From Escherichia phage T5, in the sequence record NC_005859.1: a stretch of DNA of 64,000 bases; one strand, written 5' to 3'. The notes beneath the pieces are model-generated. The model saw nothing but the letters and a program-made list of their open reading frames with translations, was not told the origin of the DNA and did no database searches. The position numbers and the translations under genes were made by a program. Below, piece after piece: positions 3,377-37,301 of this stretch (position 1 is its first letter; each line of letters opens with the position of its first letter).

Positions 3377-3472
3377 AATAATAAAACTCCATTAAAGGGA
3401 TTAAAAAACGTTTGTTATTGGCAATATTGCCAAATATAACGCCTTGAATAATAGGCGTTATAATTTGCAACA

Positions 3473-3670
3473 TTAATTTAAAGGCATAAGGCTAGAACTA
3501 ACACCACAAGCAACGGCGGCAATAAAACAAATCAGACCTAAACGCTTTGCTAACTTAGATTTACGTTTAAAATAATACGAATCTAAATCATTTTGAAAAT
3601 AAGCGAACAATAACGAGGCCGCCATAATAAACAAGCCTAGAATGAGGGATTCAGTAGGGTAAAAGATCAT
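3473..3670 (-). CDS. small membrane protein
   Basis: 65 aa, two hydrophobic segments. Confidence 0.4.
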   Translation of the reverse strand: MIFYPTESLILGLFIMAASLLFAYFQNDLDSYYFKRKSKLAKRLGLICFIAAVACGVSSSLMPLN

Positions 3671-3726
3671 TTTAAAACTCCAGTCAAAGGGAAATTATAG
3701 TGGGGAATATTCCCCACTAATTAAAT

Positions 3727-4134
3727 TTATTCGCCTGCGGCTTGTTTTACTTCATCGGCAACGCCTAACAGTTGCGCCACGGCGTCCAGCGTTTCCAATT
3801 TTGCACTTTCCAGTGATGCCAGATCGTCAGCGTCTTTGATAATACCGGAATCGATGGCATGTTTTGCAATCACACGCACGTAGTGCGCTTTGCGGATAGA
3901 ACTGCCGCCGCCAACCTTGCGAGGTTTATCGCTTTTCTGATACGCTTTCGCGCTGGTCAATTTTGAGCGAACAGACACGGGAGAAGCCGCGCCAACTGCT
4001 TTTGCAATCTCTTTTAAACCGTCGCTATTTGCGAAATCTAAACCGTTTTCATTAATTAACTGCTGGTACATGGAAACAGCTTTCTGAGTGTTTTCTTCAT
4101 TCCAAGCGAATTTTGCGGTTTTAGCGTTAGTCAT
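3727..4134 (-). CDS. basic DNA-binding-like protein (possible A2)
   Basis: 135 aa (~14 kDa), basic patch KPRKVGGGSSIRKAHYVR; located directly upstream of A1 in the leftward operon; A2 assignment is inference. Confidence 0.45.
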   Translation of the reverse strand: MTNAKTAKFAWNEENTQKAVSMYQQLINENGLDFANSDGLKEIAKAVGAASPVSVRSKLTSAKAYQKSDKPRKVGGGSSIRKAHYVRVIAKHAIDSGIIKDADDLASLESAKLETLDAVAQLLGVADEVKQAAGE

Positions 4135-19435: not shown

Positions 19436-19852
19436 TTAATCTACTACATGTATAAATCTTTTCCTAACTAGATACATAGTTATTGGATAAATTGAGTACA
19501 TAAGTATCGGGGAGAAAAGGGTGAAATACGCTGTAACTCCCCCAGCTAACATCAAAGGTATTAATGCTAGAGTAAGGGCCATAAGAACCATACCGAATGA
19601 AACAGCCAAAGCTATGGATATAGGATTCTCTAGTTCCATCCATAACCAACAATATTTCGTATCTCTATGGCAATTGCATTTACAAACACCGAATGAACCC
19701 ATAATTATATACTCTAGTACGTGAATAACCTTTATTAATAAGCTATTTCTAGTAGTTAATGCAAGGATAGTAAAGACTATCATTAAAACGAATACCACTA
19801 GACTTATTTTCCAGATACCTAGCAGCATCATAGTGAATAGTTCTGCAAACAT
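19436..19852 (-). CDS. multi-pass membrane protein
   Basis: 138 aa, 3-4 hydrophobic helices. Confidence 0.45.
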   Translation of the reverse strand: MFAELFTMMLLGIWKISLVVFVLMIVFTILALTTRNSLLIKVIHVLEYIIMGSFGVCKCNCHRDTKYCWLWMELENPISIALAVSFGMVLMALTLALIPLMLAGGVTAYFTLFSPILMYSIYPITMYLVRKRFIHVVD

Positions 19853-19930: not shown

Positions 19931-20344
19931 TTAAACTAGTTCGACATGACCGCCATCATAGGTACCACGTTTTATTTCATCGTGATAGTCTCCCGAAGCA
20001 TTCCAATCAGCACCAAAACGAAGTTTAATGCCTAGTTCTTTACCAGCTTGTTCAAAAGCCTTTTTAACTGCCCAAAATGCTTCCAAGTCATTCCAATCAA
20101 TTTTGCCATTAATATACGGAGCAAAATCAATAGCATCCCCAGTAATATGTTTGCTTTTACTAGGATCTTTTAGAAATGAAGTGCCATTAGCAATGTTCTG
20201 GGCACTTTGTGCTACTGTACGAATACCTTGCACGATTGTGAAATCATACGGAGATAATTCTAAAGCCCTACGAGCTACTTTTTGTAGTTCGGGCTTAACG
20301 GTGGCTAATTGTTTTTCGCTATTTTTACCAAATTTAAAACTCAT
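19931..20344 (-). CDS. lys: endolysin, M15-family L-alanyl-D-glutamate peptidase
   Basis: 137 aa; H..D..H metal-site pattern (HITGDAIDF ... GGHVE); size matches T5 endolysin. Confidence 0.8.
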   Translation of the reverse strand: MSFKFGKNSEKQLATVKPELQKVARRALELSPYDFTIVQGIRTVAQSAQNIANGTSFLKDPSKSKHITGDAIDFAPYINGKIDWNDLEAFWAVKKAFEQAGKELGIKLRFGADWNASGDYHDEIKRGTYDGGHVELV

Positions 20345-21051
20345 ATTGACCTACCTAAAGATCTCTGTTGTGGGGAACAGAGCTTTGTTAAGTATTCCTT
20401 AAATTGTTCTGAATCGGCAATATCTACTGGTTTATCTCTCCAAGCAATACCAATATACCCAGCATAGATATTGTTTAGATTGAAATACGGACACGTGTAA
20501 ATATAATTAAATATTACGTTTTTAAACGAAGGGATATTTTTCCCCATATATTTATTAACCTTTACAGTTAAATCCGAAGCATAGTTAAAGCCTTCTAGGT
20601 GACGTCTGTATAATTCAGACGTTTTATTTACTGCTTTATCGGCCAAGTCAGCCCTATCTAATTGCGCATTGCTTTCCCATGCAATAATGTTAGAGTAATC
20701 ATTAATGGCATCGGGTTTATACTTGACGACAAAAACAGCATCCGCACCCGTTTGAGAAAAGAGTACCATGCTCTTTTCTCTAGCTACATTAGGAAAGTTA
20801 TCTATCCTTTGAGTTTGAACATCCTGTAGAACCGCAGACGTGGAGAAAGTCTTTAAGAATGACATCACCTCACTAGTATTACTAACAAATAAGAAAATAA
20901 TGACAGCAACTAAGATAGTTAGCAGACGTTTAAGAAGCGATGCTGGGTCTTTCGCTTCTTGGAGCAGTACTGTTAATAATTGTAAGAACTTTTCCAATTT
21001 GTAACCTCCTCTAACCAGTACCATTATACTAATTTTGGAGGAAAATTTCAA
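20341..21051 (-). CDS. holin candidate (membrane protein upstream of endolysin)
   Basis: 236 aa with one strong TM segment (LLTILVAVIIFLFV); immediately upstream of and overlapping endolysin. Confidence 0.45.
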   Translation of the reverse strand: MKFSSKISIMVLVRGGYKLEKFLQLLTVLLQEAKDPASLLKRLLTILVAVIIFLFVSNTSEVMSFLKTFSTSAVLQDVQTQRIDNFPNVAREKSMVLFSQTGADAVFVVKYKPDAINDYSNIIAWESNAQLDRADLADKAVNKTSELYRRHLEGFNYASDLTVKVNKYMGKNIPSFKNVIFNYIYTCPYFNLNNIYAGYIGIAWRDKPVDIADSEQFKEYLTKLCSPQQRSLGRSI

Positions 21052-21153
21052 TGGGTTTTTAAATGTTACACTTGGAGCATAAAATTATGTCGTTGTCAAG
21101 AAGAATTTTAGATAAAAGAAAAGCCAGGGTACTTAACCCTGGCTTAAAATTAC

Positions 21154-21753
21154 TTACTCTTCATTGTGCTCCCCGGATTGAGGTAACTGCGCTTTATTGT
21201 ATTGCTCAGATCGATATTTTGCCAAGATTTCGATACGCTTATGAATTTCCTTGCTATCTAGATAGATATTTTTGTTGTCTTTTACCATCTCGTCGATTTC
21301 ATCTATTGAGAAGAACGGATAGTAGACATCTAGCATCATATCTTCTACGAACTTGTTGTAAGATTCATAGGCTTTCTTGATTTCTTGACCTTTCTCACAG
21401 AACCCGCCAGAGAACGTGTGTCCCATTAACGTAGCATGTGGATGTACTACCCATCCATGACAAGATAGGAAAATTGTGCAGTAAGCAGAAGCACTAGGAC
21501 CAATCAGGTGTCCTATAACTGTTCCACGGCAATTAGCAATTAAGTTAGATAACTGTGCAGCAGTATCAACATAACCACCGGGGCCATTAATCATCAGATT
21601 AATTTCGTCGTCCTCATTTGCCTGCATAAGTACCATTGATAAATCACGGTATTCATCCGGCGGACCAAGTTCTTCATCAAAGAAAAAGGTATACTCATTA
21701 GATTGGCGAATGGAGTGGAACAGGTTAGTCTTTTCTTCTTTTTTATTAGTCAT
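21154..21753 (-). CDS. ClpP-like serine protease
   Basis: 199 aa; INGPGGYVDTAAQL resembles the ClpP active-site region. Confidence 0.55.
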   Translation of the reverse strand: MTNKKEEKTNLFHSIRQSNEYTFFFDEELGPPDEYRDLSMVLMQANEDDEINLMINGPGGYVDTAAQLSNLIANCRGTVIGHLIGPSASAYCTIFLSCHGWVVHPHATLMGHTFSGGFCEKGQEIKKAYESYNKFVEDMMLDVYYPFFSIDEIDEMVKDNKNIYLDSKEIHKRIEILAKYRSEQYNKAQLPQSGEHNEE

Positions 21754-21765
21754 AGCGATCCTTGA

Positions 21766-22518
21766 TTATCCAACTAGTGGTTCTAGCTCTAAGTCACAGA
21801 AGTTATACACTTCTAGTTTAAGGTTATTGATACCATCGAATTTATTAACTAATTCGTGAGTGATATATTTTGCAGGAATACCACTTTCAGATGGATGATC
21901 TGATTTAATAGTGAACTTCTGCTCAGCGGGCACTACATTTACTAGTAAAGAATCCATATCTAAATGGTTCGTCTCTCTGAGTAACTCTCCTTCATTGGGG
22001 AATCTCACATCTGTTATTACGGCGACATCTGGGTCGTCTTTAGCGATGGATTGCTCCAGAATTATGAGCCAAATGCGTTCATGTACCAGCTGCCTTCCTA
22101 GCTCCGTTCCTACGAGCTGTAACATTTTTCTCGGAGAAATAAATAAACTATAAAGTCCGTCTTCTTTATTCTCTGAGATAAGTTGTTGAGGATTAAGATA
22201 TTTTTCCTCAAAAATCGGCCAAACGTACGAGAAGTCTTCAAACTTATCGATACCGTATTTAAACCATACGTCTCTAGCTCGCTCCAATTGAGATTGTGTG
22301 ACCGTAAACCATTGGTCAATCTCTTTCCCCCTGCGCTCTCCTAGAAACTCTGGAGTTACGCCGAGGATTACGGATGCAAGTTCATAAACGGGCTTAGCAA
22401 AACTGTAACGACGGGATAAACACGTTGGATACGTGTCATTACACCAATCGATAATTAATTTTGCAACGGTATCTTTTCCCGAACCAGCTTCACCATGTAA
22501 ACCGACTAATACTGACAT
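21766..22518 (-). CDS. deoxynucleoside monophosphate kinase (P-loop)
   Basis: 250 aa; Walker A GEAGSGKDT. Confidence 0.55.
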   Translation of the reverse strand: MSVLVGLHGEAGSGKDTVAKLIIDWCNDTYPTCLSRRYSFAKPVYELASVILGVTPEFLGERRGKEIDQWFTVTQSQLERARDVWFKYGIDKFEDFSYVWPIFEEKYLNPQQLISENKEDGLYSLFISPRKMLQLVGTELGRQLVHERIWLIILEQSIAKDDPDVAVITDVRFPNEGELLRETNHLDMDSLLVNVVPAEQKFTIKSDHPSESGIPAKYITHELVNKFDGINNLKLEVYNFCDLELEPLVG

Positions 22519-22871
22519 TAATCTTTCCTATTGTTAATTGGTGGATAATATACTAAACAACGTTTTTCTTGCAAATCTTGGCGGTAGAAGCAAACCATAC
22601 TTGTCAGTCGTGAGATATAAGAATATTCTGCCTCACGGCATTTTGCCAACATATTCCAATCTTTATATGGTACAACAACTACTACGCCATCTTCCCCATT
22701 TGTAGCTAATTTCTTTTCAAACTTAAAGTCAAAGCTACAAGGTTGAAGCCCTTTAGGCCAATCTACGTGAGCTGTTGGTAGCTCATGTGTAGGTTCTGGC
22801 TTTATTTCTTGTGCACAGCCTGTGATTGTGATTGCGGCTGCGAGCAGTATTCCAAGTTTCCAGTTAAACAT
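22518..22871 (-). CDS. lipoprotein (o-spanin-like candidate)
   Basis: 117 aa; signal peptide with lipobox ITGC; overlaps upstream TM/coiled-coil gene. Confidence 0.4.
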   Translation of the reverse strand: MFNWKLGILLAAAITITGCAQEIKPEPTHELPTAHVDWPKGLQPCSFDFKFEKKLATNGEDGVVVVVPYKDWNMLAKCREAEYSYISRLTSMVCFYRQDLQEKRCLVYYPPINNRKD

Positions 22872-23245
22872 GCTAATCTTTCCTCGAACTCCTTACTCTG
22901 CTTTTTAGCAATTAATGTAACCAATCCAGGCTTTGCAGCTATAATATCTTGACGACTAAGTGCCTTATCAAGCTGATTAATTTTCTTGTCTAGATCTGCT
23001 TGCGAAACATTATTCATTGTGAAATACTGATTCATTCGAGTCTCACGAAGTTCACTCTCAGCCCTCACATTATTAAGGGAGGTTTCTAGAGAAGAGATCT
23101 TTTTAGTAGCTACTGCAAGATCGCCTGCTAGAGTCTCAACCTTATTAACTAAGTGATAAGCACCGAATCCTATGCCTATCGCTAGACCTGCTCCCAGGAT
23201 ATACATCTTGTTATTCCAAACTAAGTCTACAAACCATTTCCGCAT
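22802..23245 (-). CDS. TM + coiled-coil protein (i-spanin-like candidate)
   Basis: 147 aa; N-terminal TM helix then coiled-coil; 70-nt overlap with lipoprotein gene. Confidence 0.4.
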   Translation of the reverse strand: MRKWFVDLVWNNKMYILGAGLAIGIGFGAYHLVNKVETLAGDLAVATKKISSLETSLNNVRAESELRETRMNQYFTMNNVSQADLDKKINQLDKALSRQDIIAAKPGLVTLIAKKQSKEFEERLACLTGNLEYCSQPQSQSQAVHKK

Positions 23246-23742
23246 TAGCCTGTACTCGCAAACTCACCGTGGAGTTCTTTGAGTTTGGTATCCCGCCATT
23301 TTATAGCCTCTTCCAAACTCTTAAGTGTTTTCGAAACTTGCTTACCATGTTTGGTAATTCTTACTTGGTAAGTCCCATTTGTTTTTCTATGGATATTTTT
23401 AACGCCTAAATGGTTATCGCTTCTTACTTTTTGGTTACAAGCGTTATCAGATCTTGTAGCAGGCCTTAGATTCTCAAATCTATCATTAGTTGAGTCTTTG
23501 TCCTTGTGATCAACTATTTCAGGCCATTCTCCAGTATGCCATGCATAGATTAATCTATGTGCCCCTATAGCTAGGGAACCATTATATAGTTCAACTACTC
23601 TATGCCCTGTACTTTGTCTAGATCCTGCTACTGTTCCGGCGAATATCTTATTAAAATGTTCGTCCCCTTCCCTGGGTTTCCAGATAAGATTACCATCTTC
23701 TTGGTAATCGAACATTCTTCTTAGCTCTTCCTTACTGATCAT
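23245..23742 (-). CDS. HNH homing endonuclease
   Basis: 165 aa; HNH core VDHKDKDSTNDRFENLR..N. Confidence 0.75.
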   Translation of the reverse strand: MISKEELRRMFDYQEDGNLIWKPREGDEHFNKIFAGTVAGSRQSTGHRVVELYNGSLAIGAHRLIYAWHTGEWPEIVDHKDKDSTNDRFENLRPATRSDNACNQKVRSDNHLGVKNIHRKTNGTYQVRITKHGKQVSKTLKSLEEAIKWRDTKLKELHGEFASTG

Positions 23743-27655: not shown

Positions 27656-28099
27656 TTACATCGCCTGAGTAAATGTACGACTAATAACGTCGTTCTGCTG
27701 TTCACGCGTCAGTGCGTTAAAACGCACAGCGTACCCTGAAACACGGATAGTTAATTGAGGGTATTTTTCAGGATGTTTCTGTGCATCCAAAAGCTGATCA
27801 CGACTTAACACATTGACATTTAGGTGTTGACCACCTTCAATTTGAGGGGCGACTTCCACTTTGACTTCACGAAAGGATTCGGGGTCAAAATGAGGTGTAA
27901 TACCTTCTAGATCTTCAACTAGAACTTTTTGTTTAAGTTCACCATCTTTAGAATATAATTGAATAATCTGATTATTATGAACAATATTAATTACGCCAGA
28001 TTTAAGATTTTGATACGCTTTCATTAGATCTCCTGGTTGGTAGTTAGTAGTGGATTTGAACCACTGTAGTCGCTCCGTATGAAGGAGGTGCATAACCAC
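27656..28099 (-). CDS. grcA: autonomous glycyl-radical cofactor (GrcA/YfiD-like)
   Basis: C-terminal ~70 aa near-identical in pattern to GrcA: GGQHLNVNV ... [19 protein letters not shown] ... RTFT. Confidence 0.85.
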
Positions 28100-28209
28100 T
28101 CTGCCAACTAACTATTATGTTTTACTAGGCTAAGTAAGTATTCTTTGTACTCCTTAGACCAACTAGCTTTTTTAAACTTTCCTGGACGCATAGTCTTAAT
28201 TCCTAGATT

Positions 28210-28286
28210 TGGTACTCCGGGAGGGATTTAAACCCCCGATCTCTCGGTTATCAGCCGAGTGCTTTAGATCGCTAAGCTACCGAAGT
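28210..28286 (-). tRNA. tRNA-Ile (anticodon GAU)
   Basis: hand-folded cloverleaf, CCA encoded; anticodon loop CTGATAA; T-arm GGGGG/TTTAAAT/CCCTC. Confidence 0.7.
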
Positions 28287-28301
28287 ATTAAAATATTTAC
28301 A

Positions 28302-28592
28302 TCACACACTGTCTAAGTAAGAAGTATAATGGAACTTAGTTTCTCCAGCCTTATCTACTTCTACCTCAGTTCGAGGTACTTGACGAACCACACCATAAAT
28401 CATCTTATATCGGATGCCTCTAGCTGGTTCATGATCTTTTGGAAATACTTGTTTGACCGTTACTACTTTATACCCTTCACGCGGTGTTAACACAACTACT
28501 TGATCACCCTCTTTGATTTTCCAAGAAGATGGAAATTCATAGGTGTATCTTTGGCCACCAGTTTGGAATACTACAGAAAGATAACGTTTCAT
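28302..28592 (-). CDS. hypothetical protein
   Basis: 96-aa ORF between tRNAs, downstream of canonical promoter. Confidence 0.5.
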   Translation of the reverse strand: MKRYLSVVFQTGGQRYTYEFPSSWKIKEGDQVVVLTPREGYKVVTVKQVFPKDHEPARGIRYKMIYGVVRQVPRTEVEVDKAGETKFHYTSYLDSV

Positions 28593-28622
28593 TTGGTTTC
28601 CCTCTCATTAACTTATATAAAT

Positions 28623-28651
28623 ATTATAGCAATAAATAAGAGAGAAAGCAA
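28623..28651 (-). promoter_or_regulatory. T5-type early promoter
   Basis: minus-strand TTGCTT-N17-TATAAT between tRNA-Thr and ORF 28302..28592. Confidence 0.7.
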
Positions 28652-28666
28652 ATGAATTTTTAAGTT

Positions 28667-28741
28667 TGGTGCTCCCACTAGGAATCGAACCCGGTTCAGA
28701 TGCTTACAAGGCAACTGCATCACCAACAATGCTTTAGGAGC
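28667..28741 (-). tRNA. tRNA-Thr (anticodon UGU)
   Basis: CCA encoded; anticodon loop CTTGTAA; one mismatch in each of anticodon and T stems. Confidence 0.6.
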
Positions 28742-28908
28742 GATGATCCCGTTATTTCAACGGGATTTCTTTTTCAAATACAGGGGATTTATCTGACATT
28801 ACTGTCATTGCCAACTGCTGAAGAAACTCGAAAGTTAGCTTTAAACGTTCTTCGCCTAATTCAATCTCAACGTATTTCTTTTGTTTGTCAACCTTTAATT
28901 TTAGGTTA

Positions 28909-29160
28909 TCAGCCATTAGAGAGTACAGTACTGGTAGTTGGCAATACTACAGATGAAGCAACAGTGTTTAAATGCTTTCTCCAGTCTAGGTTAAATTGTT
29001 TTCGAAACTCTTCATAAGGTTCTTCTGGATAAAAGCTAAAACCTCCTTTCTCATCATTCAGGATAACAGAGCCGTCAGTTTGTTCATATGCTCGATATGT
29101 TTCTCCAATAATGATAACTCGCTTATCAGTACTTTTATTACGAAACTCAAAAACGTGCAT
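28909..29160 (-). CDS. hypothetical protein
   Basis: 83-aa ORF. Confidence 0.45.
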   Translation of the reverse strand: MHVFEFRNKSTDKRVIIIGETYRAYEQTDGSVILNDEKGGFSFYPEEPYEEFRKQFNLDWRKHLNTVASSVVLPTTSTVLSNG

Positions 29161-29176
29161 AGTGTTTCCTTAAAGT

Positions 29177-29252
29177 TGGAGCGGCTAGAGGGAATCGAAC
29201 CCTACTCAGCGAGGCTTGGAAGGCCTGCGACACAACCCGTGTGCTTAACCGC
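29177..29252 (-). tRNA. tRNA-Gly (anticodon UCC)
   Basis: CCA encoded; anticodon loop CTTCCAA; acceptor stem 7 bp with one GU. Confidence 0.65.
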
Positions 29253-29259
29253 GATTATT

Positions 29260-29337
29260 TGGCAGGGGATATTGGATTTGAACCAATGATCTCGACTTCA
29301 AAGGCCGAAGCTTTAGGCCAAGCTAAGCTAATCCCCA
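29260..29337 (-). tRNA. tRNA-Gln (anticodon UUG)
   Basis: CCA encoded; anticodon loop CTTTGAA; perfect T-stem. Confidence 0.6.
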
Positions 29338-29343
29338 ATTGTT

Positions 29344-29419
29344 TGGCAGAAGGTAGTGGGTTCGAACCACGATCAGTGGTTTCAGAGATCCCAGCCTTAA
29401 CCGACTTGGCTAACCTTCT
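29344..29419 (-). tRNA. tRNA, anticodon arm atypical (possibly Gln-CUG)
   Basis: perfect acceptor stem AGAAGGT/ACCTTCT, D-stem AGCC/GGCT, T-loop TTCGAAC, CCA encoded; only 3/5 pairs in best anticodon stem. Confidence 0.4.
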
Positions 29420-29978
29420 TCTTAATACTTTTTGGATCTTTACCTGTTAAGGATTTATAACGTTTACGTAGTCCGTTATCAGATAATCCTAACTCTTTTG
29501 ATGCTTTAACCCATGAATAGTTTATTACCCAATATTCTATTTGCTCTGCTGTAATATCAGGGCTACTCTTAGGTTTACAATCAAAACAAGTTTTAGATGA
29601 AGAATTTATTTGTTTATTACAGTAAGGGCATTTATTACCACCTATTGTATGTCCTCTTTCAACTGTAGTTTTTATTCTATGATCTTGCTTGGTCATGACT
29701 ACTAGATTATCTAAGGAAAAATTCAATTTATTCCTATCTTTGTGATCCACTTCTAGCTCAGATTCTAGTGAAGGTAAATCTTTAAATACTCTAGCTAGTA
29801 ATCTATGTAATACGATAGAGACATTCTTGCCCTGTTCATAGAATGTTACAAACGGATATCCTGCACTACCTAAATGATGTGTGAGTAATTTATTACTCTT
29901 GGTAGAGTAAACTTCTCCATATGGAGAGATTAAGTATTCGGGATATTCCGGAATTACTTTGAAATTTTCTAATTTCAT
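29397..29978 (-). CDS. HNH homing endonuclease
   Basis: 193 aa; HNH core EVDHKDRNKLNFSLDNLVVMTKQDH plus C-terminal Zn-ribbon/HTH tail; 3' end overlaps adjacent tRNA. Confidence 0.8.
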   Translation of the reverse strand: MKLENFKVIPEYPEYLISPYGEVYSTKSNKLLTHHLGSAGYPFVTFYEQGKNVSIVLHRLLARVFKDLPSLESELEVDHKDRNKLNFSLDNLVVMTKQDHRIKTTVERGHTIGGNKCPYCNKQINSSSKTCFDCKPKSSPDITAEQIEYWVINYSWVKASKELGLSDNGLRKRYKSLTGKDPKSIKKKVSQVG

Positions 29979-29979
29979 C

Positions 29980-30180
29980 TTATTCTACAGGAACCGTGGC
30001 GATTGGCTCAGGTTCTTCAAGGCGCTTACCTTCATGATCTACTCGAATGACTCCGCATCCTTCGCAAACCACAACTGCACCATAACCTTCTTTGACTTCG
30101 GCTTCTGTAATCAGACCAGATAAGTCACCAGTATCTCTGCCCCACATATCAATGGAGCATTGTTTGCAGAAATCAGCCAT
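29980..30180 (-). CDS. zinc-ribbon small protein
   Basis: 66 aa; CxxC...CxxC. Confidence 0.45.
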   Translation of the reverse strand: MADFCKQCSIDMWGRDTGDLSGLITEAEVKEGYGAVVVCEGCGVIRVDHEGKRLEEPEPIATVPVE

Positions 30181-30205
30181 ATTTTATTTCCTATTTAAGT
30201 TAATT

Positions 30206-30282
30206 TGGGGTGGCTAGTGGAATTCGAATCCACATAGGCCTGATTCACAATCAGGATCATTAACCAATTATGATATAGCCAC
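30206..30282 (-). tRNA. tRNA-His (anticodon GUG)
   Basis: CCA encoded; discriminator C; anticodon loop TTGTGAA; perfect anticodon and T stems. Confidence 0.75.
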
Positions 30283-30511
30283 AATTGAAAACTCGCAGGG
30301 TTAGCGAAACCATCCTCAATTAGCATGTTCTAGAATACTAATCAAGTTATCTCCTATTGCACGCAGCTCAAGACGAGTACGAATTTTCAATTGTGGCGGC
30401 TCTCAGAAACTCTTCTATTCTAGCCCCAGAAGCTTACCCCCGAACGCATGTCGGGAAAGTCTTTCCAAGCGCATCAAATAGCACCGTTACACTTTGAGCC
30501 ATTGATATATC

Positions 30512-30596
30512 AAGGAACAGAAGGAGTTGAACCTTCACGAGATAGACCATTTATCTCAACCGCTTTTAAGGTATATTTCTAGGAGCGGATGTTCCT
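30512..30596 (-). ncRNA. tRNA-like structured RNA (non-canonical)
   Basis: perfect acceptor-like helix AGGAACA/TGTTCCT and T-arm GAAGG/TTCAACT/CCTTC, but internal region folds as two hairpins instead of D and anticodon arms; no CCA. Confidence 0.3.
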
Positions 30597-30844
30597 AGTA
30601 AACCTATTCGGCAGTCCCGTCTACCAATTCCGGCATATTCCAAGAATTTTTTATAAACCAGCAGAAGCCTCATTTAAAGCATCAACAATAGCTTCACGCT
30701 GGGTCATTCCATACCCAGTGGAGTCTAGGTGAGGCAAATAGGCTGCCCATCCATTATCTGTTTCATGAAGGCATGCTTTAAATTTTTTACCGTCCTTCAT
30801 TGTTACAGTAACTGTTTTGCTCATAAGGATTCCTTATAGTTAAT

Positions 30845-30934
30845 TGGAGGAAGGTAATGGAGTCGAACCATCACCGTATCACTACAGCGGGCTAGTTTTC
30901 AAGACTAGTTGCGTACCACTACGCCCTACCTTCC
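30845..30934 (-). tRNA. tRNA-Ser (anticodon UGA), class II
   Basis: 90 nt with long variable arm; anticodon stem-loop ACTAG/CTTGAAA/CTAGT; CCA encoded. Confidence 0.65.
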
Positions 30935-30941
30935 ATTTGTT

Positions 30942-31035
30942 TGGCGGAAAAGATGGGAGTTGAACCCATAAGGCAATATTGCTATTACTCAACCGATTTC
31001 CAATCGGGTTTAGTCGCCAGTCTATTTGCTTTTCC
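30942..31035 (-). tRNA. tRNA-Ser (anticodon GGA), class II
   Basis: ~94 nt; anticodon loop TTGGAAA; CCA encoded; 5' end overlaps stop of HNH gene 31022..31606. Confidence 0.55.
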
Positions 31036-31606
31036 GTTGTTCTGTTAATACTTTTGGGCTTAATCCAGTTAGTTTAGTATACCTCCTGCGCAAAGTGGAC
31101 TCTGATACTTCTAACTCTTTAGCTGCCTTAACCCACCCCATTAATAAAACCTTTTCAGTTATGTCGTCTAAAGACAATTCTGGTTTTATCAACCTTCCTG
31201 TAGGTTTTGGCTTACAATTTGTACATGTTACAGATCTCTGAAGCATTAGACTCCCACATAGGGGGCAAGGTACTCTACTGTCAGACCACCCATTATCTTT
31301 ATTAGTTTTCCTCTGATGTTCTATTTTTGATAGGACTTGAAGATTATCTTTAGATAGATTCAGTCTATCTCTATCCTTATGATCTACCTCTAATTCAGGG
31401 TCAAATAGATTATATAAGTCCCCAAATACATGAGAAATAATTCGGTGTATAAGTACAGAGGTTTGTTTACCATTTATCTGTAATTTTACAGCAGGGTATC
31501 CATCAACTATATATCTTGATAAAACTTTATTAGTAAATGTAGAGAACACATCCCCCGCCTCATTTACTAAATACCCTGGTGCATCTTTTATTGGTACAAA
31601 CTGCAT
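31022..31606 (-). CDS. HNH homing endonuclease
   Basis: 194 aa; paralog of 29397..29978 (same HNH core and C-terminal tail); 3' end overlaps tRNA-Ser. Confidence 0.8.
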   Translation of the reverse strand: MQFVPIKDAPGYLVNEAGDVFSTFTNKVLSRYIVDGYPAVKLQINGKQTSVLIHRIISHVFGDLYNLFDPELEVDHKDRDRLNLSKDNLQVLSKIEHQRKTNKDNGWSDSRVPCPLCGSLMLQRSVTCTNCKPKPTGRLIKPELSLDDITEKVLLMGWVKAAKELEVSESTLRRRYTKLTGLSPKVLTEQRKSK

Positions 31607-31623
31607 ACATAAATCCTATGAGT

Positions 31624-31708
31624 TGGTGGGGCTAGGGAGACTCGAACTCCCACGCATTTAAGCTACGGAATCTAAGGCCGTATTGTCTACCAGTTCCAGC
31701 ATAGCCCC
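31624..31708 (-). tRNA. tRNA-Leu (anticodon UAG), class II
   Basis: 85 nt; perfect T-stem; anticodon loop CTTAGAT; CCA encoded. Confidence 0.6.
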
Positions 31709-31713
31709 GAATT

Positions 31714-31789
31714 TGGTGGACAAAGAGGGACTCGAACCCTCCCTACCAGATTGCAAGTCTGGTGTGCTCCCGCTGACACTATTCGCCCA
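31714..31789 (-). tRNA. tRNA-Ala (anticodon UGC)
   Basis: anticodon loop CTTGCAA with perfect stem; acceptor stem carries the G3:U70 Ala identity pair; CCA encoded. Confidence 0.75.
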
Positions 31790-32026
31790 AATTATTTAGT
31801 TTACTAAGGCTATTAGCTCGGCGTAACTACAGCACCTTCGCTTCAAGCGGAAGGAACCGCGTCATCTCGCAAACCCAATACACTATTCAGTTGCCGCTGA
31901 ATCTAGTGGACTAATCTAGAACTTCTCCCAAATCGTAGGGATCGTGCTTTTTGGCAGCCAGTCCTAGGTCGAGCTAATACCTTAGTGAACTATGATGGGG
32001 ATTTCTCCTCATCAATTTATATAAAT

Positions 32027-32055
32027 ATTATAACAAGAAATTAAGCATTAAGCAA
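32027..32055 (-). promoter_or_regulatory. T5-type early promoter
   Basis: minus-strand TTGCTT-N17-TATAAT; no ORF for ~230 nt downstream (31800-32020). Confidence 0.65.
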
Positions 32056-32080
32056 CTGCGTTTTTGAAATTTCTTGGACT

Positions 32081-32154
32081 TGGTACTCGGTGATAGAATC
32101 GAACTATCACAACCGCCGTGTAAAGGCGGGGTTCTCCCATTATACTAACCGAGC
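32081..32154 (-). tRNA. tRNA-Val (anticodon UAC)
   Basis: anticodon stem-loop CCGCC/TTTACAC/GGCGG perfect; CCA encoded. Confidence 0.7.
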
Positions 32155-32161
32155 AAAAATT

Positions 32162-32239
32162 TGGTGGGTTGCACAGGACTCGAACCTGTAACCTATGGTT
32201 TAAAAGACCAGTGCTCTAAACCAGTTGAGCTAGCAACCC
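32162..32239 (-). tRNA. tRNA-Lys (anticodon UUU)
   Basis: anticodon loop CTTTTAA; perfect acceptor and T stems; CCA encoded. Confidence 0.65.
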
Positions 32240-32427
32240 TTAGTAACCATTATATACTTCTTTAATAGTATGGACTTTCAAATAAAGGTGATTAGTACTA
32301 AACTCCGCCATTACTTCTTTTTCATTTTTTCCATAATGTGCAAGTAAGGATTTTGATGTATTCTTACCTAAACGTTTGTCACTTACTACTAATCGAAATA
32401 CTTTCATTTCGAAATCCTCTATTAAAA

Positions 32428-32505
32428 TGGAAGCGGGTGCAGGAATCGAACCTACCTCTTTCTAGCTTATGAGACTAGCGATCTCTACCAGAGATCTAAC
32501 CCGCA
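32428..32505 (-). tRNA. tRNA-Met (anticodon CAU)
   Basis: anticodon loop CTCATAA; 1:72 position unpaired (U/U); CCA encoded. Confidence 0.6.
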
Positions 32506-32511
32506 ATTGTT

Positions 32512-32588
32512 TGGTCTCCAATGAAGGACTCGAACCTTCAACCCCACCGCCCCAAACGGTGTACTCTAGCCAATTGAGCTAATCGGAG
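32512..32588 (-). tRNA. tRNA-Pro (anticodon UGG)
   Basis: anticodon stem-loop CACCG/TTTGGGG/CGGTG perfect; G37; CCA encoded. Confidence 0.7.
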
Positions 32589-32783
32589 AAAATTATTTCT
32601 TCAGCCACAACATGCTTAATCCTAGCATTGTAAAGCCTGTACTTAATCCTATTACCTTTTCTATCATAGAAAAGTTATCTATGTTAAATCCTACTATTAC
32701 TATAGGGATAACCCAAGTACACATGAATACTGATGCAATTTTATACTTCACTTAGCTTTCCTTCTCTTCACTTTATAAGATAT

Positions 32784-32812
32784 ATTATACAGAGAATTAA
32801 GCATAATAGCAA
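32784..32812 (-). promoter_or_regulatory. T5-type early promoter
   Basis: minus-strand TTGCTA-N17-TATAAT. Confidence 0.65.
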
Positions 32813-33204
32813 CTACATTTTTCATAAATTTACTTATTGTGTAGGCCACCTGGAGGCTACCAACCCCACGGCTGACAAAGAAGTTTGCGAGACTTCTCTT
32901 AAAAGCCAGAATAGACCCGCCGATCTATCGGAACCTACATAATAAGTAAACTTTATAGTGTCATCCTAGACAGGATTCGAACCTGCTATCACTTGTGCGG
33001 ACTTACGAGAACCATTCTTTCACTCGAATCGAACGAGCTTCTGCCCTCGCCAAGTTGGTTTCCCCATCAACCACGCTAGAATGTTAGATTGTTTTCAGTG
33101 CAAGAGTCCGAGTCTTGGACACGACCGCTTCGCAAGTACATAGGCAGCTTATCATGAGTCAGCACTTCCGAATTGCTAGCTCCGTGTTCTGCACTGAAAT
33201 TTTA

Positions 33205-33552
33205 TTAGTTTAACCGTAAAGTATTATCTACTTCACCATTAATTGTTCGGCACTCCTCTGGGATTGCCGGAGTGGCCTTGTATTCCCACCACTCAGCACC
33301 ATCATATTCCCCACGTTCTAGCCAAGTTCCGTCGGCAAACCATACATTACCATAAAGTAATTGTCCACCGTATCCAGAATCATATTCAAAGTCTAGGTTA
33401 TCAAGAAAATCCTCAATATCTTCTTCTGTATAACCTAAAGGTAATACCCAAACTTTTTTATCCCCATAATACCCGAATTCTATTTTAATACACTTAACTT
33501 CAGAATTAGTATTTTTTAAGGCAAGTAACAGCTCTTCTTTGGCATTACGCAT
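33205..33552 (-). CDS. hypothetical acidic protein
   Basis: ORF-track start 33639 lies inside tRNA-Asp; internal ATG at 33552 (MRNAKE) used. Confidence 0.45.
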   Translation of the reverse strand: MRNAKEELLLALKNTNSEVKCIKIEFGYYGDKKVWVLPLGYTEEDIEDFLDNLDFEYDSGYGGQLLYGNVWFADGTWLERGEYDGAEWWEYKATPAIPEECRTINGEVDNTLRLN

Positions 33553-33577
33553 AGTATATTCCCATACTGAATTAATT

Positions 33578-33654
33578 TGGCGCGACCGATGGGATTTGAA
33601 CCCACATTCTCTCCCGTGACAGGGGAGTACCATTACCAAGCCAGCCCCGGTCGC
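33578..33654 (-). tRNA. tRNA-Asp (anticodon GUC)
   Basis: anticodon stem-loop CTCCC/CTGTCAC/GGGAG perfect; perfect acceptor stem; CCA encoded. Confidence 0.75.
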
Positions 33655-33663
33655 ATAATTTAT

Positions 33664-33849
33664 TTACTCAGCTTTGAGTTTTTCAATAGCTGCATTAAGT
33701 TCTTTAAGAAACTCTTTTCGTACATTAAGACGATTGAGACTTACTAGTATATCATGTTTAAGCTCTTCGATGTATTTCTTCTCAACTTCAATATTGTTGA
33801 TAGTGCTATCACGATGAACTTCTAGCTGCGCAATCACATTCTTGGACAT
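33664..33849 (-). CDS. small coiled-coil protein
   Basis: 61-aa ORF. Confidence 0.4.
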   Translation of the reverse strand: MSKNVIAQLEVHRDSTINNIEVEKKYIEELKHDILVSLNRLNVRKEFLKELNAAIEKLKAE

Positions 33850-33951
33850 GCTTGTTTCCTCAGTTATTAATGAAAATGGTATCTGTGGCTGAATTCGATG
33901 TCAGCAATGATAGCTGGTTGGCTACCGGTTTACTTAACTCTACACAGAATT

Positions 33952-34029
33952 TGGCGGTTCCTGCTGGATTCGAACCAGCAACCCTCAACTTAACAAGATG
34001 CCGCTCTAACCAATTAGAGCTAAGGAACC
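33952..34029 (-). tRNA. tRNA-Asn (anticodon GUU)
   Basis: canonical loop TTGTTAA but anticodon stem has two mismatches; perfect acceptor and T stems; CCA encoded. Confidence 0.5.
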
Positions 34030-34524
34030 ATATAAGTCAGAACTAGAGTTAATACGTTCTAGATATTTACTAAGATCTCTAGAATTTATACTAAACCACT
34101 CATGTTCTTTTAAATCTTTGAAATACTGGTGAATTAGTTTTTCACCTTTTCGTTTGTCAAACCAAAAAGACCAATGCTCTAACTTATAATCCCTATAAGG
34201 GGAATAAGTCTGATATTGAGCTAATCTCTCCTTTGGATTTTGACTCATACCTATTTTATACTGATTTTTCCATGCAGGATTACTAATACAGTATACAAAA
34301 CCTTCAGAAATAGGAAGTTTATTTTCCTGCTTAAACTTTATAAAGGAAAGTGCAGCAAGTTTTCTCGAATACATAGTATTTGTATTCTTTTTGGTATTAC
34401 CATTGGTTCCTGAAAGATTTATATATACTTCCATAAATCTTTGGATTAGTTCTGCGGTTATATAGAAGGGCTCATTAGTAACAACGCCTTTCTTTACCAA
34501 ACTATCAAAAACTTTTGTATGCAC
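34006..34524 (-). CDS. T5orf172-domain protein (GIY-YIG-related)
   Basis: 172 aa; YCISNPAW..YKIGMS..P..R pattern recognised from memory as the T5orf172 domain; 3' end overlaps tRNA-Asn. Confidence 0.7.
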   Translation of the reverse strand: MHTKVFDSLVKKGVVTNEPFYITAELIQRFMEVYINLSGTNGNTKKNTNTMYSRKLAALSFIKFKQENKLPISEGFVYCISNPAWKNQYKIGMSQNPKERLAQYQTYSPYRDYKLEHWSFWFDKRKGEKLIHQYFKDLKEHEWFSINSRDLSKYLERINSSSDLYGSLALIG

Positions 34525-34545
34525 TACTTCTTTCCTTTAGTAATT

Positions 34546-34621
34546 TGGACGACCGCATGAGATTTGAACTCACATAAAAAGGATTTGCAATCCTTCGCCT
34601 AAGCCATTCAGCCAACGGTCG
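34546..34621 (-). tRNA. tRNA-Cys (anticodon GCA)
   Basis: anticodon stem-loop AAGGA/TTGCAAA/TCCTT perfect; CCA encoded. Confidence 0.7.
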
Positions 34622-34784
34622 ATTTATTATCTTTCATAATATGTAGCTACATGGTCGGAACCACAATTACCACACACTTTCTTACCTGTTTTAGAGTAGT
34701 AATCTTGATCACCACATTCATAACAGATACATAATTCTTTTTCTTGTTCTGTCATATTGCTTCTCCAGTTCAATTTATGTAATT

Positions 34785-34813
34785 ATTATATAGAACTTTT
34801 GGAAACTAAGCAA
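34785..34813 (-). promoter_or_regulatory. T5-type early promoter
   Basis: minus-strand TTGCTT-N17-TATAAT. Confidence 0.65.
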
Positions 34814-35093
34814 CTACATTTTTTAAGAATTTGATGCCTTTCTTTTTCTTCTTATATTTCCACGTTAATGGATTCTGTCGATTATAAACGCTTGAGATCT
34901 TTGTCTCGTCAAAGTTCTTCAATATCATGTAATCACAGGATAATTGTTCTAGTGGAATGTGGTCACCGCCAAAAGCGTATATATAAGGCCGTTGACTAAC
35001 ACGATAATGATAGACTTTGTTAATTCTACGTTTCAGCGATTTATCCGCACAGTAAATAAAGAAGTTTTCAGGATGCATCAGCATCTCCTTCAA
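34806..35093 (-). CDS. hypothetical protein
   Basis: 95-aa ORF. Confidence 0.45.
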   Translation of the reverse strand: MKEMLMHPENFFIYCADKSLKRRINKVYHYRVSQRPYIYAFGGDHIPLEQLSCDYMILKNFDETKISSVYNRQNPLTWKYKKKKKGIKFLKNVVA

Positions 35094-35095
35094 TT

Positions 35096-35170
35096 TGGTG
35101 CACCCTGTTCGAATTGAACGAACCTCTCAAGCTCTTCAGGCAAGCGCTAATCCATCTCAGCTAAAGGTGC
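35096..35170 (-). tRNA. tRNA-Phe (anticodon GAA)
   Basis: perfect T-stem and D-stem; anticodon loop CTGAAGA; anticodon stem has two U:U mismatches; CCA encoded. Confidence 0.5.
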
Positions 35171-35256
35171 AAATTTTGGCAGAGGTAAAGGTATTCGAAA
35201 CCTTTTCATGGGTTTTGGAGGCCCATTTGCAACCTATGCGTACCCCAATTGTTAAT

Positions 35257-35333
35257 TGGCGTCCTGTGTGGGGATCGAACCCGCAAACCCTACCTTGAAA
35301 GGGTAGTGACTTTACCAGTTTGTCTAACAGGAC
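35257..35333 (-). tRNA. tRNA-Glu (anticodon UUC)
   Basis: anticodon stem-loop CTACC/CTTTCAA/GGTAG perfect; perfect acceptor stem; CCA encoded. Confidence 0.75.
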
Positions 35334-35339
35334 TTAAAT

Positions 35340-35427
35340 TGGTAGGGGAGGATGGAGTCGAACCACCCGAGTCGCAATGACAACTAATTTACAGTCAGCT
35401 CTGCTACCACTTACAGAATACTCCCCC
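35340..35427 (-). tRNA. tRNA-Tyr (anticodon GUA), class II
   Basis: 88 nt; anticodon arm GCTGA/CTGTAAA/TTAGT; long variable arm; CCA encoded. Confidence 0.55.
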
Positions 35428-35551
35428 ATATTTGAATGAAAAGTAAGTCGGTTAAACTCAAGGTGGAATATTTCAGGATTTCCTGACTTTACCCCTCAAA
35501 GTAACTCGCTTAGTTACTTCTCATTCAGATATGTTTCCAAATTAGATAACT

Positions 35552-35580
35552 ATTATACCAAGTTTTAAGGCACTGAGCAA
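35552..35580 (-). promoter_or_regulatory. sigma70 promoter
   Basis: minus-strand TTGCTC-N17-TATAAT upstream of tRNA-Tyr/Glu/Phe group. Confidence 0.55.
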
Positions 35581-35616
35581 GTCAAATTTTGAAGAACTTG
35601 CTCAGTGCTGTATTAG

Positions 35617-35892
35617 TTAGTCGAACTTAGGAGTGACAGATAAGGAGAACGGAAGTTCAAAAACTTCTTCACCCTCATTACTAACAGTAACTACACGACC
35701 TTTAAGTTCAGACATTGAAATATCAATATCAGCTTTTGCATCTGGAGCCATGCCAGCTTCAACACATTTAGCTTTAACTTCCGGCAAGAGTTCTACATCG
35801 TAGAAATAAAGCCATTCAATCTCACCTTCCCAGCCTTCCCAGGATTTACAGATTGCACTTTCAATACCAGTTGCTACAACACTATTTTGCAT
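35617..35892 (-). CDS. hypothetical protein
   Basis: 91-aa ORF downstream of canonical promoter. Confidence 0.45.
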   Translation of the reverse strand: MQNSVVATGIESAICKSWEGWEGEIEWLYFYDVELLPEVKAKCVEAGMAPDAKADIDISMSELKGRVVTVSNEGEEVFELPFSLSVTPKFD

Positions 35893-35982
35893 TCGTTAAC
35901 TCCTTCATCAATTTATACAACTATTATATCAGAAATTTAAAGCAAAAGGCAAGTACATTTTTAAAAATTCTATTCGGAGGAG

Positions 35983-36189
35983 CTAAACTCCAGATTCTTC
36001 TGCCAAGTCTAGGCTAATAAGAGTTATAGCCATAATTGCTGCACCGTGTTCTTTTTCTCCGGTGTTTTTAGCAGAGTCTATAATATCCTTAATCTGTTCG
36101 TAATAACTTTTTACTTCTTGTTCAATGCCTGCCTCGGCTATCATGCCTTTAGCCATGAATCGTTGCATGGTAATTTCAGGATTAGCCAT
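35983..36189 (-). CDS. hypothetical protein
   Basis: 68-aa ORF. Confidence 0.4.
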   Translation of the reverse strand: MANPEITMQRFMAKGMIAEAGIEQEVKSYYEQIKDIIDSAKNTGEKEHGAAIMAITLISLDLAEESGV

Positions 36190-36378
36190 GTTGTTTCTCC
36201 AGTTTCATTTTTAATAGTTTACAGATGAAATCAACGTCTTCATCCGTGCCTAAGTCTCTATCCTCAAGGGTCGCCTTGAAGTTTTTCGTCAATTCCATGA
36301 GGATGACTTCCCTAGAACGACGTGTTGGGGGCGGAGGAGGTCTATACATCTTAATTCCTTAATTTGGTAGGAACTATA

Positions 36379-37062
36379 TCATCTATTTTTCTTAATACTT
36401 TTAGGATCTTTCCCCGTCAGGGACTTATACCTTTTCCTTAATCCAGTATCAGACAATCCTAGTTCTTTAGAGGCACGAATCCAGGAATATTTAGATACCC
36501 AGTACTCTATTTGCTCCACAGTAATATCTGGATTTATAGTTATCCCTTTAGGAGTACATGATTTACAGTGTGTTGCTCTTGAGCTAATTTCGCAGTGACA
36601 AATAGCACACGTATTTACAGTCCTTTCTGTATACCTGCCAATATTTTTGCCTGCATGAGTAGGCGTTAGTGCATGGCAATTTGGACATAGGAGGGCTAAG
36701 TTATCCCATTCATTATTATAGTGGTTTCCATCCTTGTGTTCGAGTTCTAAAGGAATTGGTTTGTCTAACCAACTTTCTAAGCCGCAACTCTCACACTTAT
36801 GTGGTTTTAGCCCCTCGTTAAGAATTTTATTCTTTAGTTTATAGGAAGAAATAGGGCTGCCGTTATATAAATATTCTGTTGCAGACTTATATTTATTATC
36901 ATACTGCCTATTCGTAGGAATAACTACTATTCCTAGTTTTCCTAAATATGCTTCCAAAGTGTTCGAGGAGCAGGATAGCATTCTTGCTATCTCTGCCTTA
37001 GATTTTCCCTGAGCTATCCACTGAGCTATTTCTTCCTTTCTATCTAGTATATCAGTTCTCAT
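36379..37062 (-). CDS. HNH endonuclease with N-terminal HTH
   Basis: 227 aa; LELEHKDGNHYNNEWDNLALLCPNCH HNH core, extra Cys clusters, C-terminal tail shared with other HNH paralogs. Confidence 0.75.
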   Translation of the reverse strand: MRTDILDRKEEIAQWIAQGKSKAEIARMLSCSSNTLEAYLGKLGIVVIPTNRQYDNKYKSATEYLYNGSPISSYKLKNKILNEGLKPHKCESCGLESWLDKPIPLELEHKDGNHYNNEWDNLALLCPNCHALTPTHAGKNIGRYTERTVNTCAICHCEISSRATHCKSCTPKGITINPDITVEQIEYWVSKYSWIRASKELGLSDTGLRKRYKSLTGKDPKSIKKNR

Positions 37063-37085
37063 AATTTATGACTTTCTACTTAAGT

Positions 37086-37163
37086 TGGTGGCTCCCCGAG
37101 GATTCGAACCTACGTACCTTCCAGTTATGAGCTGGGTGCTCATACCATATGAGCTTGAGAACC
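37086..37163 (-). tRNA. tRNA-Met (anticodon CAU), second copy
   Basis: anticodon loop CTCATAA; D-stem GCTC/GAGC; acceptor stem with two GU pairs; weak T-stem; CCA encoded. Confidence 0.55.
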
Positions 37164-37169
37164 AGAATT

Positions 37170-37258
37170 TGGCGGAAGAAGTGGGAATCGAACCCACAAG
37201 GCTATATTTCAAACCGACAGATTAGCAATCTGCTGCAATACCGTTATGCTATTCTTCC
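37170..37258 (-). tRNA. tRNA-Ser (anticodon GCU), class II
   Basis: 89 nt; perfect acceptor and T stems; anticodon loop TTGCTAA; CCA encoded. Confidence 0.65.
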
Positions 37259-37272
37259 GAATTTATAAATAT

Positions 37273-37301
37273 ATTATATTAGAAATTTAGCTTCATAGCA
37301 A
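37273..37301 (-). promoter_or_regulatory. T5-type early promoter
   Basis: minus-strand TTGCTA-N17-TATAAT upstream of tRNA-Ser/Met pair. Confidence 0.65.

Follow-up and report, generated by a model that had tools for sequence, protein, structure and literature searches.

Structure of the locus

The analysed window covers the initial 64 kb of the Escherichia phage T5 genome and is 100% identical to AY692264.1, with the coordinates unchanged; in a megablast search, its segment 22400-23400 matched phage T5 strain st0 (AY692264.1) with 100% identity at equal coordinates, as well as two further T5 records. Two genes of the minus strand, T5p044 and T5p043, partially overlap here and are followed by the genes of a dNMP kinase, a Clp-like protease, a T-type holin and an endolysin (Table 1). 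The ORFs confirm the observation of the first-pass annotation that a reading frame for a protein with a transmembrane segment and a coiled coil overlaps a lipoprotein frame by 70 nt. AY692264 labels both products "hypothetical protein", and in the original GenBank records of T5 (AY692264, AY587007, AY509815) the pair still appears as hypothetical proteins or unnamed ORFs.

Table 1. Features of the T5p044-T5p043 locus and its surroundings (window coordinates; codons are numbered within the respective gene)
Feature	Position	Strand	Basis
HNH endonuclease gene T5p045, upstream of T5p044	23245-23742		AY692264 annotation
Putative i-spanin gene T5p044	22802..23245	minus	ORF, 147 aa
Predicted single N-terminal transmembrane segment YILGAGLAIGIGFGAYHLV, T5p044 codons 15-33	23147..23203	minus	hydropathy
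Predicted long periplasmic helix / coiled coil, T5p044 codons 34-97	22955..23146	minus	AF2 helix 13-97
AAKPGLV at the predicted break between both periplasmic helices, T5p044 codons 103-109	22919..22939	minus	AF2 and alignment
Putative Shine-Dalgarno-like sequence GAGGAAAG, 10 nt upstream of the o-spanin ATG, inside the i-spanin gene	22878..22885	minus	sequence reading
C-terminal CLTGNLEYC (CX7C), T5p044 codons 126-134	22844..22870	minus	paired alignment
70-nt overlap, T5p044 C-terminal tail / T5p043 signal peptide	22802..22871	minus	both ORFs
Putative o-spanin gene T5p043	22518..22871	minus	ORF, 117 aa
Predicted lipoprotein signal peptide, T5p043 codons 1-19	22815..22871	minus	PS51257-like pattern match
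Lipobox ITGC, T5p043 codons 16-19	22815-22826	minus	PS51257-like pattern
CFYRQDLQEKRC with two cysteines equivalent to PseT.2 C87/C98, T5p043 codons 94-105	22557..22592	minus	alignment
dnk (dNMP kinase), between spanin and holin genes	21766..22518	minus	context gene
Clp-like protease gene T5p041	21154..21753	minus	PF00574 4.7e-8; phrog_1827
Terminator-like hairpin 3' of the Clp-like gene	21121..21145	minus	10-bp stem and T-run; consensus match only
Sigma-70-like promoter (11/12) 5' of the holin gene	21023..21051	minus	coincides with AY692264 putative promoter 20998-21062
T-type holin gene T5p040	20341..20997	minus	PF11031 5.9e-119; record annotation
Endolysin (M15 peptidase) gene T5p039	19931..20344	minus	phrog_465 1.1e-54; PF13539

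The i-spanin candidate

In the PHROGs comparison T5p044 was assigned to phrog_739 "Rz-like spanin" (7.8e-38), and a second spanin family, phrog_214, gave a weak match (8.5e-4). T5p044 also has the similarity to T4 PseT.3 that characterises T4-type i-spanins: the two proteins share 30% identity over 94 aa, the KPGLV motif included, with E 2e-7, which is a pairwise E-value only. Its predicted topology is that of the inner-membrane component of a two-component spanin, a single N-terminal transmembrane segment with the remainder mainly helical or coiled-coil. Residues 15-33 are the sole hydrophobic stretch of the protein. The highest Kyte-Doolittle 19-residue window reaches 1.55, slightly below the classical cut-off of 1.6, since the segment is Gly-rich; it is helical in the AlphaFold2 (AF2) model and aligns with the transmembrane segment of PseT.3.

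According to this AF2 model, a low-confidence one of the i- and o-spanin fused (pLDDT 67, see below), one helix (residues 13-97) runs through the membrane segment into the periplasmic part; after a break at 98-105 another helix follows (106-127), and the tail bearing the CX7C motif is disordered. The coiled coil ascribed to this protein in the first reading agrees with the long AF2 helix, and also with the published Pepcoil prediction for the T5 i-spanin, residues 31-73 (Kongari et al. 2018 Table S3, PMC6139136). The motif at the break is common to T4 PseT.3 (AHKPGLV) and most Demerecviridae i-spanins. The protein has only two cysteines, 126 and 134, both of which are invariant in 28 IMG/VR loci, and C126, G129 and C134 are near-invariant in the paired alignment, T4 being the sole member without them.

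The i-spanin has its cytoplasmic N-terminus in one of three mosaic forms, MRKWFVDLVWNNKM, MDLIQKLLSGIWxGKW and MIKNFISSLWxGKW. The HNH gene T5p045 adjoins the i-spanin start through a TAATG stop/start overlap. At the DNA level, most relatives cease to be similar near 23204, which indicates that this HNH gene is present only in a subset of the phages.

The o-spanin candidate

T5p043 matched phrog_812 "Rz-like spanin" (3.5e-30). Its N-terminus, MFNWKLGILLAAAITITGC followed by AQ, fits the PROSITE PS51257-like lipobox pattern, with Cys19 as the lipid-attachment site and Ala at position +2, so that the ITGC lipobox reported earlier in this 117-aa protein is confirmed. Hence the protein has a predicted signal peptidase II signal, the lipobox Cys and a residue other than Asp at +2, as expected of an o-spanin; in the translated sequence we observed no hydrophobic segment beyond the signal peptide, and none at the C-terminus. 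The lipobox Cys was found in 23 of the 24 members of the o-spanin family, the exception being a truncated fragment, and none of them has Asp at +2.

The mature part of T5p043 (98 aa) contains eight prolines and four cysteines (C45, C78, C94 and C105). In the family alignment C19, W38, P39, C94, Y96 and C105 are near-invariant; C94 and C105, which are kept in all full-length members, align with C87 and C98 of T4 PseT.2, each of which is essential in T4 (Kongari et al. 2018 section 12, PMC6139136). The other two cysteines, C45 and C78, are either jointly present or jointly absent across the family, and their being gained or lost together suggests that they pair with each other.

The similarity to T4 is visible both in direct and in profile comparisons: T5p043 and PseT.2 share 29% identity (BLASTP, E 4e-8), and the o-spanin family profile matches PseT.2 with a probability of 99.3 and E 2.7e-20 (hhalign). 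Thus, both sequence features of a T4-type o-spanin, similarity to PseT.2 and two conserved C-terminal cysteines, are found in T5p043. The AF2 model (24-row alignment, pLDDT 82.9) begins with a signal helix, which is followed by a beta hairpin (strands 50-55 and 61-66) and by a long helix at 69-96, and it has the fold expected of this type, with a variable linker, a central beta element and an alpha helix, and no proline-rich region. The best structural neighbours of the model in BFVD are T5-like o-spanins, a Providencia phage o-spanin, a Shigella T4-like "Rz1" and PseT.2 of Acinetobacter phage 133.

The family of T5p043 is narrow. An exhaustive search of representatives found 21 related clusters, with full-length members of 94-124 aa, and a word-indexed protein search five. 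The remark in the first-pass annotation that 117 aa is large for an o-spanin is therefore true in comparison with lambda Rz1, but not within the T4/T5-type family.

Among domain collections, the Pfam family PF26831 Phage_T4_Spanin has precomputed matches on T5-type homologs, in one 99%-identical cluster and in distant ones. Neither T5p043 nor T5p044 was matched in our local Pfam-A scan; for T5p043 this is because PF26831 is missing from that copy, where T4 PseT.2 is unmatched as well. The NCBIfam scan of both proteins yielded no significant match, and the PDB sequence searches no meaningful relatives, only similarity to BamB and RcsF at the level of the signal peptide and coiled-coil noise. 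In the records of T5 relatives the orthologues are named i-spanin, o-spanin or Rz-like spanin.

Overlap and selection

The two genes lie on one strand, and the o-spanin ORF starts in the +1 frame of the i-spanin ORF, as seen from the ORF list and the translations. The length of the overlap, 70 nt in T5, varies between 14 and 88 nt in T5 relatives and is 4 nt in T4. In related IMG/VR loci (n = 28; o-spanins 87-100% identical) both ORFs are intact in every case, and the ITGC lipobox and the four cysteines of the mature o-spanin are invariant.

Outside the overlap, pN/pS was 0.085 for the i-spanin and 0.12 for the o-spanin (Nei-Gojobori count against T5). Synonymous divergence dropped from 0.27-0.35 outside to 0.054 and 0.018 within the 70-nt overlap; thus, this stretch is constrained in two frames, as dual coding predicts. 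The hallmark features of both ORFs are far beyond chance, and the two form a real gene pair.

Gene order and transcription

The first-pass annotation had noted the ClpP-like protease and dNMP kinase genes lying between the pair and the lysis genes, and these are T5p041 and dnk. The same order (i-spanin, o-spanin, dnk, Clp-like protease, T-type holin, endolysin) is found in Erwinia phage KEY, Klebsiella phage vB_Kpn_K7_rec4, Proteus phage Stubb (Novosibvirus), Pectobacterium phage DU_PP_V (Mccorquodalevirinae) and three metagenomic or NCBI contigs with o-spanins 36-38% identical to that of T5. Thus, all Demerecviridae loci examined keep the spanins apart from the holin and endolysin, and the position upstream of dnk, the Clp-like protease, holin and endolysin is a conserved trait of Demerecviridae rather than an anomaly. 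As for the distances, the approximately 1.5 kb initially assigned to the endolysin is in fact the distance to the annotated start of the holin gene (ATG 20997); to the endolysin start (20344) it is 2.2 kb.

The terminator-like hairpin and the sigma-70-like promoter, both of which are consensus matches only, point to the spanins probably belonging to a separate transcription unit upstream of the holin-endolysin operon. The promoter and terminator scan, together with the record annotation, suggests co-transcription of the pair with T5p046, the HNH gene, dnk and the Clp-like gene. The mechanically called holin start, TTG 21051, falls inside the promoter, which makes the annotated ATG more plausible.

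Several other features were observed in the surroundings. AY692264 marks a "major DNA single-chain interruption", one of the known T5 nicks, at 22336-22337 inside dnk, approximately 180 nt from where the o-spanin gene stops. T5p038 (19436-19852, phrog_5944), immediately downstream of the endolysin gene, encodes a very hydrophobic, apparently multi-pass membrane protein of 138 aa; a gene of similar size occupies this position in most related phages examined, and its product could be a lysis accessory protein. Further away, the region 28038-41504 contains 23 minus-strand tRNA genes, including a called tRNA-Ser with the unusual anticodon ACT (41431-41504).

Comparison with known spanins

Two-component spanins, which pair an inner-membrane protein with an outer-membrane lipoprotein, breach the host outer membrane at the final step of lysis. 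In the T4 PseT.3/PseT.2 system both components are homologous to the T5 pair. The o-spanins of T4 and T5 have in common the HxxWP motif and the C-terminal C-x10-C motif, the i-spanins the AxKPGLV motif, and T4 as well as T5 has its spanin genes apart from those of the T-type holin and endolysin. The o-spanins are also alike in predicted architecture, with a beta hairpin and a long helix in the T5p043 model and a beta1-alpha-beta2 organisation predicted for the T4 family (Kongari et al. 2018, PMC6139136). The T4 spanin genes are not near holin gene t or endolysin gene e, and pseT.3-pseT.2 complement lambda RzamRz1am (Kongari et al. 2018, PMC6139136).

At the same time, the identity between T5 and T4 is about 29-30%, below the 40% family threshold of Kongari et al. 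(PMC6139136), who list the two as representatives of separate families. The T5 genes overlap by 70 nt, whereas the 4-nt arrangement of T4 is classed as "separated". PseT.2 is 99 aa long, compared to 117 aa for T5p043, and does not have the extra cysteine pair C45/C78; PseT.3 lacks the C-terminal CX7C of the T5 i-spanin and has no periplasmic Cys.

Lambda Rz/Rz1 and the T5 pair would constitute one functional class, a type II inner-membrane coiled-coil protein with an outer-membrane lipoprotein, and presumably act by the same mechanism. No sequence similarity between them was detected beyond the weak phrog_214 match of the i-spanin. In both phages the i-spanin gene contains the start of the lipoprotein gene, which is read in the +1 frame. 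However, lambda Rz1 is fully embedded in Rz, short (about 40 aa in the mature form for this type), proline-rich and has a single Cys, whereas T5p043 is only overlapped, has 98 aa in its mature form with four cysteines, and is predicted to be folded; also, the lambda spanin genes are located within the lysis cassette, unlike those of T5. The unimolecular spanin gp11 of T1 resembles T5p043 in that it is a lysis protein with an outer-membrane lipoprotein signal. Still, spanins of this type combine the N-terminal lipobox with a C-terminal transmembrane segment of their own, and T5p043 has no such segment and is accompanied by a separate inner-membrane partner.

The T5 pair is already published and widely annotated in the records of relatives. 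The T5 i- and o-spanin families were defined by Kongari et al. (2018, PMC6139136), who noted that "the T5 spanins overlap by 70 bp". In their Table S3 the T5 OIS and OOS have 147 and 117 aa, respectively, and the row "T5 ovl -1 22801 23245 22517 22871 ... 70" of Table S4 is the present pair, with 0-based starts (Kongari et al. 2018, PMC6139136). T5 is the founding member of this family, and our pair is its entry, with identical coordinates, lengths and overlap; the other members are EPS7, Stitch, SPC35, AKFV33, FFH1, DT57C, My1, phiR201 and Shivani (Kongari et al. 2018, PMC6139136). Unlike the original T5 records, PHROGs, a Pfam family, published work on spanins and many records of relatives already identify the pair, so the significance of the present analysis is mostly in annotation, as a clean assignment of a T4-type two-component spanin to T5.

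Proposed function and alternatives

We consider that T5p044 and T5p043 are very probably the two-component spanin of T5, with a probability of about 0.9; this reading follows from the hallmark motifs, the PHROG families, the homology to T4, purifying selection, dual coding and conserved synteny. The interpretation as an i-spanin/o-spanin pair put forward in the first-pass annotation is supported by the PHROG families, by the T4 PseT.3/PseT.2 homology and by its listing in Kongari et al. (2018, PMC6139136). We found no experiment on the T5p044 or T5p043 proteins in the searchable literature. For T5 itself, the membrane topology and lipidation, the binding of the two proteins, their disulfides and a role in lysis are inferred from the sequence features and by analogy with lambda and T4.

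If the pair acts as a spanin, T5p044 would be a type II inner-membrane anchor whose periplasmic part is made up of a long helix, the KPGL break, another helix and a CX7C loop at the C-terminus. After processing at its signal for signal peptidase II, T5p043 would receive its lipid on Cys19 and be sorted by the Lol pathway to the outer membrane, as expected from the presence of Ala, and not Asp, at position +2. By analogy with lambda and T4, the C-terminal regions of the two proteins would bind each other, forming a disulfide-stabilised complex that spans the periplasm, threaded through the peptidoglycan, whose mesh would restrain it. Release of the M15 endolysin by the T-type holin, and the breakdown of the wall that follows, would set the complexes free to collapse and fuse or disrupt the outer membrane, thereby completing lysis. 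A fusion of the i-spanin, a GS linker and the mature o-spanin was modelled with AF2 on a 14-row paired alignment; this low-confidence model (pLDDT 67) contains no usable interface and was read for secondary structure only.

The disulfide pattern in such a complex may be considered separately. Cysteines in the predicted periplasmic parts are conserved, C126 and C134 in the i-spanin, and C45, C78, C94 and C105 in the o-spanin. The near-invariant CX7C of the i-spanin, along with the C45/C78 pair of the o-spanin moving as a unit, might indicate that the T5-type complex is covalently wired in another way than those of lambda and T4, and could support a heterotypic disulfide between the i- and o-spanin or a redox-triggered activation. 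We regard this as improbable. To our knowledge, neither a heterotypic i-o disulfide nor redox-triggered activation has been described for spanins, and the known spanin disulfides are homotypic.

Alternatively, the two proteins could be functionally unrelated, T5p043 being an outer-membrane lipoprotein with some other role, such as superinfection exclusion or receptor masking, like T5 Llp. Indeed, a lipobox alone leaves the function of a lipoprotein unspecified, and the folded, Cys-rich domain of T5p043 is unlike the short, Pro-rich lambda Rz1. However, its homology to T4 PseT.2 holds at the profile level and includes the essential cysteines, the structural neighbours in BFVD are o-spanins, and wherever the upstream sequence of a relative is available, the o-spanin gene lies directly downstream of an i-spanin-type gene and usually overlaps it, which makes an unrelated role very unlikely. 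One could equally suppose that the pair is a spanin by descent, now dispensable or vestigial, with the outer membrane being breached by another route. We see little room for this, as both genes are under strong purifying selection (the pN/pS values given above), all motifs are kept in 28 of 28 loci and in several Demerecviridae lineages, and the two genes stay intact even where a homing endonuclease gene has been inserted between them; in favour of dispensability one may count that the genes reside in an early-region operon with genes of nucleotide metabolism and not beside the holin, and that we found no knockout data for the T5 spanins in the searchable literature. Finally, a weak NCBIfam match of T5p044 to FtsL_COG5462 (22.5 bits, E 6.7e-5) could be taken to mean an FtsL-like bitopic coiled-coil protein interfering with host cell division. 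The score is far below the curated 50-bit cut-off, and the match takes in only the transmembrane segment plus the beginning of the coiled coil, which is a generic architecture, whereas the homology to PseT.3 and phrog_739 is specific and much stronger. We therefore rejected the FtsL-like identity, whose chance of being correct is the slightest among the alternatives, and treat the sub-threshold match as generic similarity.

Endonuclease insertion and annotation of relatives

In Shivani and phiR201, a homing-endonuclease gene of approximately 700 bp is located between the spanin genes (Kongari et al. 2018, PMC6139136). We observed a gene for a 232-aa endonuclease at this position in phage H8, vB_Sen_SG_WM_RUS_R2, Shivani, PQ002169 and others (at about 3310-4000 in loci L014, L015 and L017, and at 3460-4158 in L003). 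Where it is inserted, a gap of 666 nt replaces the 70-nt overlap. At the junction there is an imperfect duplication of approximately 15 nt, which retains the i-spanin up to and including Cys134 and the o-spanin from Lys5 onwards, so that both genes are intact. The encoded endonuclease contains CapR/DUF4379 zinc-finger regions together with a T5orf172/MUG113 domain. As the split arrangement is already described (Kongari et al. 2018, PMC6139136), the protein domains and the junction duplication are minor additions.

Two public annotations of o-spanins in relatives appear truncated. In Proteus phage Stubb (L042, 3501-3812) the gene is annotated as starting 24 nt downstream of the Met that gives the n-region of the LVGC lipobox signal, and a note in the record states that the lipobox workflow failed. 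In Klebsiella phage vB_Kpn_K7_rec4 (L041, 3501-3830) the annotation covers only 3675-3830.
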